This document shows positions 32,801 to 38,800 of a stretch of DNA of 64,000 bases, in pieces. The notes under the pieces are model-generated. The model had not been told where the DNA came from. It saw only the letters and a list, made by a program, of their open reading frames with translations, and ran no database searches. The position numbers and the translations under genes are program-made. The number at the start of each line of letters is the position of its first letter. Within the stretch, counting starts at the first letter, position 1. Source of the DNA: Balanoglossus misakiensis (taxonomy: Eukaryota; Animalia; Hemichordata); contig CM082582.2 of NCBI GenBank assembly GCA_040954595.2, forward strand, positions 5,378,303 through 5,442,302, read 5' to 3'.

Positions 32801-35800
32801 TACAACAACATCATAGCTCATCCAATGATACTAAATAACTAATTTAATGTCAAATGTTAGCCACTGTACGTATCCCTTTAAAAAATAAATTACGGTTTTC
32901 ATATTTGCCAGATCAATTCAAAAGATGAAGGTTATAAACAATAATGATTTTATCATTTTTAAATATAAAAGCTATAAATCCAGCAATTTTAGGCTTATTA
33001 ATCTAATTTGCGTTTTATTCCACTCACTCATTTCTATTTCACGGTACATTTTGATGAGATTTGGTCTCGATGCGCTTTCAACCGATTTTAATCTGCCTTT
33101 CAGAATTGTCTTCAGTTCATCGTCAGATAGGGTTTCCGGTCTTCTGAAGTCCCACACCAATGATCCAAGCTTCAACTGAAAAGAAATTGCTTGAAATAAG
33201 TTTCCTTTATCCATATACCATGTATCACGTTACTCGTAATTCGTATGTGAGATTTCTCTAGCTCATTGTCATAGCAATGAATATTAATGAGTCTACATAT
33301 ACAAACCCTTGAATTCACATAAATCCCTGTCGCCAAAGAATTAGTGTTAACACTCAGAACAGACATTTTCCTGGAAATAAGATCCACTGAGTCAGTCAGT
33401 CAGTCAGTCAGTCAGTCAGTCAGTCAGTCAGTCAATCAATCAATCAATCAATCAATCAATCAATCAATCAATCAATCAATCAATCAATCAATCAATCAAT
33501 CAATCAATCAATCAATCAATCAATCAATCAATCAATCAATCAATCAATCAATCAATCAATCAATCAATCAATCAATCAATCAATCAATCAATCAATCAAT
33601 CGATCAATCAATCAATCAAATGAATGATCGAACACCTACTTGAAGATCGTCAAGCATATCCTGGAGGCGAATCCTGATCGAAGTCTGTCCTGCAGCATCA
33701 AGAAAGCCGAATATATCACCCAGTCTAATGCTTGAGAGACGAAAATTAAACAGCGGCCCTCTGTCGTCTATCTTCGGTAATCCTAATCTATCAAGGACTC
33801 CTGTCAAAATAATAACAAATAAAACAACATCAGTGTTGTTTGCAAGTAAAAAAATTAGAATTTCTGTAATAAAAATGCCTCTCATCGTTAATTATGACCG
33901 GTTCTTTGTTACAAGGCTTCTTAATTACAGGTACGCACGATGTAACCAATCTTAACAAGGTGATTTTTACACTGGGTTCTGTTGCCGGGAATTACTTTTC
34001 TAACTCGCCAACAACTCAAAACGTCAATCACGACATTGTCCTGTCCTATTAAGCCATACATATCTCCAAAACAAAATCTTATATCTTACCTTTGCCCCAA
34101 TCTATTGGATTGTTCTCCCGTACTGGTTTCTGATCATCCACGTCACTGGTGTCCGGTTCGCTCGTTCGCGCTGGACTTTCGTCAGTGTCCTGTGGACCTT
34201 TGGTTATTCTTCCCGGCCCAGAAATTGTCGTTTCCTGTAAGCGGTAGTCTTTTTGTAACGATTTAACGGAATATTTCGAACATTTTCAAATGATCAAATT
34301 TATACATTTTTTGTGCATTATATTGTAAACATACTTCTCAACCATCAACTTTTCAAAAACATTTCTTGCAAAAGCCAATGAACAACGGTGAATAAGTTAG
34401 AAATATTCTGTGGGTAAAGTTCATATCCTCCGTAAACTACTGACAGAGAGAAAACGTGGTTTTGCATGAAAGACTAATTTGACGAAATGGGAATCGAGCG
34501 ACAATAATGCGAATCTCCGAAAAACAAAAGAACAGGCATGCAGGCAATTACCGTGAATACGTCAATGTAGTACTCATCACAATGTTGCTTCCATTCAGGT
34601 TTGAACATTTTACGTTTCTCGATGTAGCTTGTAGGGTCAATGTAATCTTGCGTTCCCACTTTCCTCATCGACAAATGGATGGCGTTTGGTGAACAGCCCG
34701 ACGACACGACCTTGCCAAGTGCCATACTCTTGAAGATCTGCATTTGTTGAAAGGTAGAATGATTCTCATGATATATCGAATGCACATAATGTATGAATGC
34801 TTTGCTATTACTCATAAACTGTAGATATATGTGATTTCCCACTTCTGTCTATTGTTTTAAATGTTTGACGTTAACTAGACGTATAGATGTACAGTTATAC
34901 GGATGAGAGATATGGTCTCTACAACGTATATACTCTTTGCTATTAAATATATCATAGGTATACCTCAGTCTAAACTTCATATCCATCAAATAATGCCAAC
35001 GCCTGCCCTCAAGAATACAGTGTACGCGACTCAAATTTACACACTTTTAATTCCTAAACATTTGGAATTTCGAAAAATAAACCGCCAATTTAACATTTAC
35101 AGAACTCTTTATCCTCAACTATTTGGTTTAATGACAGAATTTAAATGAGGCCATACCTGAAAACACTTGCAATAAAATTCAAGTACTATTTTGGTATTAC
35201 ATTTTTGTCTTTCTATACACGCTTCTTACCATTCTTTCATCTTTGTCATCATCCAGATCGACATGGTCGATGATGACCTCAGTGTCTTTGATTTCGTCTG
35301 ATATTGCGATGATCAGTTGCGTCGGTCCACTTCTTCTGACGTCACCGGTGAAGGGGGACACAAGCTGTAATCATCAACAAAAATAGATAATTAACTACGC
35401 AAACAAACTGTGTCATGACATAAATCTGACGTTGGATATTTGGGTTGTGGGAACGTCAGTAATTCAACGTCCGATTGATGTCACGACAAAACCATGAATA
35501 GTTTGTAAGAGAACTGGTATAACCATACTATGCTGTGGTCCATCTATACACTATAACACTGATCACAGTTGCAATGGCAATGGGGGTGAAATGGTTAAGT
35601 CATGTGATCGACGAAAATGGCGGCGATGAGTTCTCGAACATGTACTACGGGAGAGGGCACAACAATAATGAACTAACCACGTCACATACTTACCGTAGCT
35701 CCAACTTCAATCTCCAAATCGACTCCAGGGTGTGTGTTCCCCGCTGTACTTGGGTAGAATCCTTCCCCACAACTAGTCTCCGCAAACTTACGCGGGAATT

Positions 35801-38800
35801 CCGCAGCGCTCTTGGAACCGAATATCTTGTTGAGTAAAGTCTTCGCAAATTCATACCTAATAATAATAGACGTTTAAAGAGAACAGCTGAATGCATGCAT
35901 GGTTTTCGTTTTACAATTTTTATTTTTAAGTTCTTAAGCCACCAATTTCCCCAATTCGCTTCCTATTTTTTAACCAAAAAGGGAAAATATTTGTAATTGC
36001 TGGAGGTTCAAGTTCGCATGTGCATATACCCCGATATTTTTGGTTTGCTCGTTAATACAAAGAGATTCCCTGACTTGTAAGTCTATCACATATGCCATTT
36101 GTTACTCTTGGTTCAATGAAGTCCTCGCGCGCATAACTCGTTGGTAAGGTCTCAGAAAATATTGTTCTACACAACTATGTATTAGAAATTATCGCGTTCA
36201 CATTCCGAACCAACTTAAAATGCAATTATTATTGAGAGAGGGTATTAAGAAGATTCACATTGAATACACACGCCTAAACAACACTAAATGTGTCCTACCC
36301 TAATTTGACCCCCTCGTAACCCTCCTTGGCTGCAGCGATGACTGAGAACACTGCATCGTAGGCATCGACGAAAGGTTTGGCCAACTCCTCTAATTCGTTC
36401 AGTGGTTCCGTGAAAACATCAAGTGCACCGGTGATGTCTGCCAGGATTAGTCGCCGAAATTCCGCCTGTATATCGGAGACAATGTATTGTCAGTTTGTGT
36501 CGCCGCTGGATTGTATCTTCTTGCGAAAATCGTTTAACAATTCATTTCATGTCCTACAGATAGCATAGTTATCTGATTGCTAACAATTTAGAATGAAGTC
36601 AGGATCGATCATAAGCCCACGCAAACATTTTCAACATATTTTATTCAAAAGTTAAAGCTTAAAGAGATTATGATATAGAGGCAATCAGACATACACGATT
36701 TTACTTTTACAAATGACTTTTATGACTTTTTATGGTGAACCATAGATTCGGAGCGCGCGAGTTAAGAACCACTATGTTTAAAATAAAGTTAACTTGGGAG
36801 TCGGCACGTGAATAATATAGTCATTATCATCGATCTGTACTGGACAAGTTGTATTGTTTTGTTTTTTCCCCTAAAATTTTGAACCATAACCAGCCATATA
36901 TGAAAATTTCTTAAAATTGCCTCATGCACATGTATATGCACGTAAGCACTGTCAATCCACTTGCATTAATCACTTTATAAAAAAAGTCATTTCAGTGTTA
37001 TTTACCAAATGTGCCTTGTTAGTGTCATACCTTTGTTTTGCCTGTATAGTAGAAAATTTCATCGTCGGAATCCCCTCCTTCATTGACCCACGAGACAGCG
37101 TCAGCCAGGGAATCCTTCGCCTTCAAAATGTCATCCCATATTCCTTCTAACTCCGTTTTCATGTCGAACCAGTAAGGTTGGTTCCCTTCAGTAAAGAAAC
37201 ACGCGTCTTCGATCCGCTTCTTGGCGTCTATGACTACGGCAACGGCTCCCTTGATCCTGTTAGGAAAGTACAAGTCGAAAAAAATGCCTCACATTTCCCC
37301 TTTTCTCCCAACCTCTTTCTTTCTTTTTCTTTCTTTATTTCTTTCTAGCCAAAACTTACTGCATGATAAATCTTGCAATGTCGTTGATAGCTGCCTTCGG
37401 TGACTTGAATAACTTCTTAAGTGCGCCTGCTATGGTTGGTATCGCATCTTCTAACTGCTGCCCCACCCATGGAATTGTGATTGTTGCGGCGTCGTTGATC
37501 GACTGGAAATGGAATGCCAATTTAAACATTTATTACTTTGATGGTAAATACTGCCGCATATGTTTAATTTATCTAAAACGGGGTACTAGTAAATAACACA
37601 ACATCAAAACTGGAGCGTCATAGGTGTTGCGCTTTCTATCTTGAAATGGCCGTGAAATGTGAAAGCTTACGTTGTATAGCTCCATGACGTCAGTCCTGAT
37701 AGCGGTGAACAATGCGGACACTCGCTCCACCACGTTCCCCACGTCTTTGAAAAACTCTGGCAGACCGGAATATTTACCAATGCGACGGATCACTTCCTTT
37801 CCAATATGGCGCACGTTCTTGACCTTATTTGGAAGTTCCATGACAGCCCTGACAAAATTTTCGAAAATGTCTTCAAGCGGCACACTGTTTGGTGACAGCA
37901 GAGTTTTGAAAACTTCAATGGCGTTTTTGACTGCATCAACGATGTTGCCCACCACGCTGTCGAAGAAATTGACCAGACTTTTGATGTCACTGAAACCAAA
38001 CTCCTGTGAAATAAAAAAAGAGATTGGAGGTCACGAGCTGCTCTAAATAATTATATGAACTTTTATACGTTTAGATGTTTCTCGGCTTCATACGAGCTGT
38101 TCGTTATTGAACATTTCACCTGCCTATAATCGGTATATCATTAGGTCAAAGATGTAGTTCATTTTATTCACCCTTACTTTGTGGTAGTGTGGTCGTTACT
38201 TCTCTCAAAATACCCTTAGTTGGTATCATTTTGGGTGACACACCACGACCCGAAACTGCGGGTTTATTTACATGCTACCAGATTAAATGGCATTAAAGGT
38301 GGCGATCGTTCCTCGTTCGTTAGATGTCTCTCATACCTGCAAGATGTTTAAAGAGTAGGACCCATCACCGCGGAAACAGACTTTGGCGTCGACGAATGTG
38401 AACTTTTTACCAATATATCCGATGACACCAACAAGGTAGGCGTGGTCGTATACGTCTATCTTTATAGATCCTTCTAACGGTTCTGTGGGTAGAAATGAAT
38501 GTATTTTAATTTTTATCATGTTTTGTTTCCCCGGTCGCTATATCAACGCCTGCCTTCAGCATGTTCGTCTGACCATAGATAGAAATGCATGCATACATGC
38601 ATATAGAGACAGACAGACGACAGACAGACTTACAGACAGACAGACTTACAGACAGACAGACAGACAGACATACAAACAAACAAACTGACAGACGACAGAG
38701 AGAGACAGACTGAGATAGAAAATGTGCACATGTTTTTGTCGCATCATTTTTTTTTTTTTTTTTTTTTAGAATAGTTTATTGCGTTCCAAGGCCTCCGGCC

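Follow-up and report, generated by a model that had tools for sequence, protein, structure and literature searches.

The window analysed here, 64,000 nucleotides of the hemichordate Balanoglossus misakiensis (GenBank assembly GCA_040954595.2, contig CM082582.2, positions 5,378,303 to 5,442,302), carries on its minus strand a gene for a predicted giant membrane protein, and embedded in that protein is a domain with the fold of the M23 zinc peptidases, familiar chiefly as bacterial enzymes that cleave cell walls, and of LECT2. The domain retains the His/Asp/His zinc ligands of this fold and has Ala in place of the first His of the HxH motif. The reading to which we give an even chance, from its sequence and those of its relatives, is that the domain does not cut but serves, stabilised by zinc, as a binding module that sits in the outer head of a giant predicted type I membrane protein and whose partner is probably a protein.

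The domain is spread over three exons, which an earlier note on this DNA had numbered, as we do, 20 to 22; they belong to a model of 75 exons. The four motifs that the note had picked out, HPGVD, LVSPFTG, AIH and DPTSY, are all found where it had placed them, on the minus strand:

35856–35694, minus strand: exon 20, encoding the N-terminal portion of the M23-fold domain and aligned to the orthologues
35771 and 35756, minus strand: loop-1 Cys and loop-1 Tyr, respectively, in exon 20
35732–35718, minus strand: HxxxD zinc motif HPGVD in exon 20 (His 35732–35730, Asp 35720–35718)
35364–35230, minus strand: exon 21, central strands, with LVSPFTG at 35364–35344
35265–35263, minus strand: codon in exon 21 for a His at the position of LytM His260, the register taken from profile alignments
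34737–34552, minus strand: exon 22, with the second Cys (34695), AxH, DPTSY and the C-terminal linker
34683–34675, minus strand: AIH in exon 22 (Ala 34683–34681, His 34677–34675)
34638–34624, minus strand: DPTSY in exon 22

All three exons have AG/GT ends and compatible phases, and joined they encode 161 residues with no stop; from the splice signals and from colinearity with the orthologues we infer that they are spliced in this way. An in-frame acceptor at 34818, upstream of exon 22, was picked by the automatic gene model and would lengthen that exon by 27 residues; in the family alignment the orthologues have no matching insert. H-x-G-[VI]-D occurs once across all six frames of the window, which, with the shuffle scores given below, rules out a chance resemblance. 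Single exons are too short for Pfam, in which none of the three, each searched alone, matched any family. Exon 20, again too short a query, gave one unrelated match among PDB sequences (E = 0.21), and a word-index search with exon 22 among proteins of 110–2000 residues returned three candidates, none of which scored.

The assignment to the M23 fold is secure. Pfam Peptidase_M23 (PF01551) is matched by all five of the excised orthologous domains, with E values from 2e-9 to 0.009 and two over the cut-off, and is not reported for the full-length proteins P0008 and P0153. When a profile of the family alignment was compared with PDB sequences, the top matches were LytU, LECT2, SpoIIQ, Csd3, LytM and lysostaphin. 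The amphioxus and abalone domains were modelled with AlphaFold (pLDDT 76 and 73.5, respectively), and both models matched M23 structures in Foldseek; the Atlas returned M23 clusters at 0.97. Superposition of the amphioxus model with VIA-align gave LytM (Z 12.6, root-mean-square deviation 3.0, 117 residues aligned) tied with LECT2 (PDB 5B0H; Z 12.5, deviation 2.7, 114 aligned, 23% identity); LytM, LECT2 and lysostaphin fall between Z 12.2 and 12.6, and rows outside M23 at 7.8 or below. The window's own spliced domain reached 24.0 bits against a profile built from 112 phage M23 proteins (at most 7.9 in 1000 shuffles), 21.9 bits on the 102 of these with Tyr at the His260 site (Tyr-type; best shuffle 10.4) and 15.5 bits on 104 classic phage M23 proteins (best shuffle 5.5). 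The proposal of the earlier note is thus borne out, for the fold by Pfam and the two orthologue models and for the register of the His/Asp/His ligands in the window by the alignment; fold and register together suggest that the three ligands converge on one site. The window domain has H(x)nD and the His260-site His, and AxH where HxH would stand, so that on its sequence it is not classed as an active M23 peptidase.

The gene has recognizable orthologues. Best matches to its largest exon come from Ptychodera (67%), Glandiceps (57%) and Saccoglossus (45–47%), and in tblastn the Saccoglossus protein P0008 and the amphioxus protein P0060 are colinear with the window over almost their full length. 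Eight of 167 stored proteins cover the N-terminal part of the gene model, and the M23-like domain is at the same place in every one. These eight represent five genes, those of Saccoglossus, Branchiostoma floridae with its hybrid, B. lanceolatum, Haliotis and Littorina; they were annotated independently, belong to two superphyla, and give a domain alignment that is gap-free at the window's exon joints. The family alignment comprises six sequences: the window, Saccoglossus, the B. floridae hybrid, B. lanceolatum, Haliotis and Littorina. Crinoid and nemertean matches begin downstream of the M23-like domain. Region searches with P0008 found 2 of 128 and 1 of 949 candidates, and the range of the family is under-sampled; its members are mostly named ‘uncharacterized’ in the databases. 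To judge from the sequences, the domain is likely to be old, because hemichordates, amphioxus and molluscs have it in common.

Two database records bear on the history of individual members. P0152, from Saccoglossus (538 residues), holds a partial second M23-like copy, which its gene model runs together with a SETD4-like protein; its accession is two numbers from that of P0008, and it is likely to be a tandem duplicate merged by annotation. P0166, from Haliotis (7526 residues), has about 2300 extra residues (about 1445–3780) after the M23 domain, for which the other orthologues have no counterpart.

The residues at the active site, in the order ligand 1, Asp, His260 site, first His of HxH and ligand 3, are as follows in the family alignment:

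Window: H D H A H
Saccoglossus: Q D P I H
B. floridae hybrid: H D P S H
B. lanceolatum: S D G S H
Haliotis: H D N H H
Littorina: H D N H H

None of the six sequences has all five active-site residues together, and the zinc triad with its HxxxD motif is complete in four. The active-site Asp, the ligand-3 His and the loop-1 Tyr are invariant in all six, as are two Cys, which are the only ones in five of the domains (Littorina has six). Residues 1001–1100 of the model hold 18 positions invariant over five sequences, the most of any of the first 19 blocks of 100; the isoelectric point of the domain ranges from 4.7 to 9.4 across the family. The first His of HxH is missing in all four deuterostome genes and kept in both molluscs. 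The replacement of HxH by AxH in the window, which the earlier note had read correctly on the minus strand, is not a sequencing slip, because the Ala codon, GCC, is more than one base away from any His codon and the same His is absent from all three of the other deuterostome genes; sequencing error at this codon is thereby ruled out. The His260-site His is found in the window alone, one sequence of six, and may be a recent one-base gain. The classic phage profile gives a conflicting register, with another His of Haliotis in the His260 column, but Asn is favoured there by the family alignment, which is free of gaps, and by where the strands end in the two models. We infer that selection has kept the scaffold while the catalytic residues drifted differently in each lineage.

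In M23 enzymes the zinc ligands are the His and Asp of H(x)nD together with the second HxH His. The water is flanked by the first His of HxH and by a His about 30 residues earlier (His260 of LytM), either of which may activate it, and a loop-1 Tyr stabilises the intermediate (PMC9662197). The earlier note had called the first His of HxH the catalytic one and had described the domain as lacking it while keeping its zinc ligands. The first His of HxH is catalytic and is gone from the window, but M23 enzymes have two catalytic His (PMC9662197), and the second, with the loop-1 Tyr, is still there; the zinc triad is whole in the window but is not constant in the family.

Dead mutants bear on what the loss may mean. 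LytM H291A has no activity although His260 is still present (bioRxiv 10.1101/2023.10.13.562287). EnpA H109A is described as inactive; it keeps the metal in its structure, and substrate soaks failed (PMC8269130). The AxH of that mutant aligns with the SxH of amphioxus. Pgp3 H247A, also inactive, was solved with peptidoglycan peptides bound and with waters at the zinc site (PMC6978369). The window domain is thus a natural counterpart of these standard dead mutants, which supports inactivity. The inactivity that the earlier note proposed for the window is accordingly likely; both molluscs keep HxH. The peptides bound to Pgp3 H247A show that a domain with this change can bind substrate, as the window domain might.

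Other precedents point to protein partners. Where M23 folds are degenerate, they serve mostly in contacts between proteins (PMC9662197). LECT2 is reported to be without enzymatic activity (PMC8174566), its zinc, at H35, D39 and H120, is described as structural (PMC8039541), and its known partners in the papers cited are proteins (PMC8174566, PMC9258709, PMC5079751); its worm homologue, LECT-2, bridges a receptor complex (PMC5079751).

Phage proteins provide a further comparison. The set comprised 120 loci, 119 with a LECT2-like motif and 112 usable, and both phage sets were chosen by motif. Tyr occupies the His260 site in 102 of the 112, and HxH is kept in 99 of those 102. Small M23 proteins in which loop 1 resembles that of LECT2, the His260 site is Tyr and HxH is intact are thus widespread in viral contigs. 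That Tyr-type phage M23 proteins keep HxH without His260 weakens the argument that the mollusc domains are necessarily dead. The Tyr-type profile scores higher than the classic one in five of the six animal domains, amphioxus P0060 being the opposite. In a tree of the six animal domains with random draws of 25 of the 102 Tyr-type and 25 of the 104 classic phage proteins, LECT2 being absent, the animals form one clade (SH-aLRT 99) on a long branch; it lies outside both phage sets, and the order of the three groups is not given. Neither the profile preference nor the tree is accepted as evidence of descent, since both phage sets were picked by motif. Recent bacterial transfer is ruled out by the introns inside the domain and by the single animal clade. 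Scans for close prokaryotic or viral relatives found none, and tblastn of phages gave 10 weak records.

The gene that carries the domain, and the features around it, are as follows:

4863–48732, minus strand: host gene, a rough homology-guided model of 75 exons and 4881 residues, with no stop
48559–48732, minus strand: first coding exon, whose start is hydrophobic and, judged by eye, resembles a signal peptide
40974–45250, minus strand: exons of the Vitellogenin_N (LLT) region, weak Pfam matches in the correct order
39759–39934, minus strand: exon coding for a furin-type R-x-K/R-R site that directly follows the LLT region; four of five orthologous genes have the site in the corresponding position
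27362–27673, minus strand: exon of a PAN/apple domain (Pfam PAN_1, E = 0.0059)
10311–26843, minus strand: exons of a stalk of FN3-like repeats (Pfam fn3 in an orthologue, E = 1.5e-9; repeated cross-matches and motifs)
6202–7308, minus strand: large exon with Big_9/cadherin-like (Pfam Big_9, E = 3.6e-12) and EGF (E = 0.0016) domains
5670–5836, minus strand: predicted transmembrane helix and basic stop-transfer run

Some small exons and the 3′ end of this model are uncertain. The LLT label is a weak one, drawn from colinear Pfam matches of which one is over the cut-off. In the window Vitellogenin_N is matched at E = 0.027 (profile 317–408) and E = 0.065 (profile 464–509); Saccoglossus matches profile 84–163 at E = 5.8e-4, one orthologue exceeds the cut-off (E = 1.2e-6, 27.9 bits vs 24), and the Littorina orthologue has the domain in its precomputed annotation. 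Searches of PDB sequences recovered no LLT protein, and for one LLT exon the Atlas gave HEAT-like helices only, under its recognition level. These matches agree with the fusion to a Vitellogenin_N-type protein that the earlier note had put forward. The furin-type site lies near residue 615 of the model and the M23-like domain near residues 1020–1140, with a helical stretch between them and a Cys-rich, beta-rich stretch without a Pfam match after the domain. An acidic tail follows the transmembrane helix. The product is predicted from these features to be a type I membrane protein, and a C-terminal hydrophobic segment is present in four of the five orthologous genes. The conserved furin-type site suggests a two-chain product, as in apolipophorin II/I. 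A Saccoglossus paralogue, P0007 (3369 residues), begins with a hydrophobic segment and combines a WAP domain with the same FN3/EGF/transmembrane stalk (compare 4863–28600 of the window), without LLT or M23, and other relatives end in Sushi repeats; on these sequences the stalk looks like a modular scaffold on which both heads and tails can be exchanged.

A binding module of this kind might work as follows. The chain would enter the secretory path, a furin-type convertase would cut it after the LLT region, a single helix would anchor it in the membrane, and the long FN3-like stalk would hold the LLT-plus-M23 head off the cell. In the window, His, Asp and His would hold one zinc, and the pair of invariant Cys would tie loop 1 to the one preceding AxH. 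With Ala in place of the water-activating His, the groove would bind but not hydrolyse, and selection would keep the scaffold, as in LECT2, EnvC and NlpD, which act by protein contact. A protein is likelier than peptidoglycan as the partner, by analogy with LECT2 and other degenerate M23 folds; a protein-binding module is favoured because catalytic and even zinc residues have drifted on a scaffold that is conserved, and because those folds, LECT2 and worm LECT-2 among them, serve protein contacts.

Several observations weigh against this reading. The folded models are those of the amphioxus and abalone domains rather than of the window's own spliced domain. The window keeps its His260-site His and loop-1 Tyr, so that some residual activity may persist. 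Zinc ligand 1 is lost in two of the six sequences, so zinc is not essential family-wide. Amphioxus P0156 has no hydrophobic segment above threshold and ends, as read by eye, in Sushi-like and lectin-like repeats; membrane anchoring is therefore not universal.

It is possible, though clearly less probable, that the domain is a peptidoglycan trap, whose dead groove would bind bacterial stem peptides in a surface receptor for pattern recognition or feeding, the LLT part binding bacterial lipids. The Pgp3 H247A structure with its bound peptides carries the same change (PMC6978369), the window retains the zinc triad with the His260-site His and loop-1 Tyr, and immune roles are reported for LLT proteins (PMC1783640). 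Against these stand EnpA H109A, which could not be crystallised with substrate (PMC8269130), a groove chemistry that is not conserved (the loss of ligand 1 and the spread of isoelectric points), the protein partners of LECT2 in the three papers cited above, and a precedent that is bacterial only. To judge from the sequences, a reading that joins zinc with peptidoglycan is not family-wide. A broader version, which we consider rather unlikely, is that bilaterians inherited a membrane-anchored receptor for the bacterial envelope, with a lipid-binding LLT head and a second animal M23 lineage, which would still be a working peptidoglycan hydrolase in molluscs, where HxH is intact as in LECT2-type phage M23 proteins, and would have become a substrate trap in deuterostomes after loss of the catalytic His.

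That the domain is a structural relic, binding nothing outside its own protein and kept as a packing unit of the head, is unlikely. Catalytic and zinc residues do drift freely in deuterostomes, and the conserved flanks, a helix before and a linker after, could pack on neighbouring domains; yet no other block among the first 1900 residues is as well conserved as the domain, and its Asp, ligand-3 His and loop-1 Tyr never vary.

Peptidase activity is about as unlikely. The window domain would then cut slowly by way of its His260-site His, and the mollusc domains by way of their intact HxH, as the LECT2-like phage M23 proteins presumably do. Either His may activate water (PMC9662197), HxxxD and HxH are kept in both mollusc genes, and the retention of HxH by nearly all Tyr-type phage proteins means that a missing His260 need not imply a dead enzyme. 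Loss of the first HxH His alone, however, abolished the activity of LytM (bioRxiv 10.1101/2023.10.13.562287), the His260-site His is confined to one sequence and possibly recent, LECT2 is reported inactive (PMC8174566), and activity of the phage proteins is presumed. It is highly improbable that the domain is an artefact of exons not spliced together or drawn from a separate small LECT2-like gene: several database models of the family are fragments and the splice joints of the window are read from its sequence, but five independently annotated genes in two superphyla have the domain at the same place with no gaps at the exon joints.

In a domain of 130 residues, the six sequences make up a natural gradation of losses at the active site, which bears on the passage of the M23 fold from cutting to binding among animals and on which His matters. 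Pseudo-M23 domains are already known; the placement of this one and its graded loss across phyla appear to be new. No description of the family or of an LLT-M23 fusion was found in the literature searched, a search outside which supplements and most subscription journals lay, and in PMC12419801 M23 occurs only in a reference. LECT2 is treated in PMC9662197 and PMC9258709 as the only mammalian or vertebrate M23 protein. The domain described here sits in a different animal protein, was missed by Pfam on full-length chains, and points to a family, so far undescribed, of giant surface proteins with LLT heads.

Other features of the window include an open frame at 38879–39592 (minus strand; zf-RVT, E = 0.002), likely a 3′ relic of a LINE-type (long interspersed element) retrotransposon in the intron after exon 14, and an exon at 60322–60666 (plus strand) for the ligand-binding domain of a neurotransmitter-gated ion channel (Pfam E = 2.4e-6), which belongs to a separate neighbouring gene. 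Tandem repeats lie at 1684–2288, 245–726, 30515–30736 and 33392–33619: there are 8.6 copies of a 70-base unit and 2.2 of a unit of 213 bases, and introns contain long TCAT/TCAA microsatellites.

One of the closest known systems is LECT2 (human, PDB 5B0H, and worm LECT-2), with these likenesses: an M23 fold with a His/Asp/His zinc site, loop 1 with Cys-Gly-x-Gly-x-Tyr and a PFTG turn, in an animal, extracellular protein reported to be non-enzymatic. LECT2 reportedly has HxH intact and a Tyr86, and in the profile alignment it has no His on the strand that corresponds to His260; the window domain is the reverse. LECT2 is a secreted protein of 16 kDa with three disulfides, of a type that consists solely of one or two M23 domains, whereas here a single domain, usually with two Cys, is part of a chain of about 4900 residues, and the six conserved Cys of LECT2 (four or more in fish; PMC8039541, PMC8174566) are not matched. 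The lysostaphin/LytM-type M23B enzymes LytM, LytU, EnpA and Pgp3 share the fold and, in register, HxxxD, the His260-site His and the oxyanion Tyr; they differ in that the first HxH His of the window is Ala, identity is about 18–25%, and the domain is an animal one, split by introns and embedded. EnvC, NlpD, DipM and SpoIIQ, which are among the fold and profile matches, combine the M23 fold with a broken catalytic set and protein contact (PMC9662197), but they are bacterial envelope proteins with no sign of special kinship. With vitellogenin, apolipophorin II/I, apoB and MTP the host protein shares a weakly matched N-terminal Vitellogenin_N, and with apolipophorin II/I and apolipocrustacein a furin-type site after it (PMC1783640). 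The scanned orthologues, in contrast to these LLT proteins, are not reported to have VWD, DUF1943 or DUF1081 and have instead M23, PAN, FN3-like, Big_9 and EGF domains and a transmembrane helix, and their cleavage site corresponds to one near residue 615 rather than about 725.

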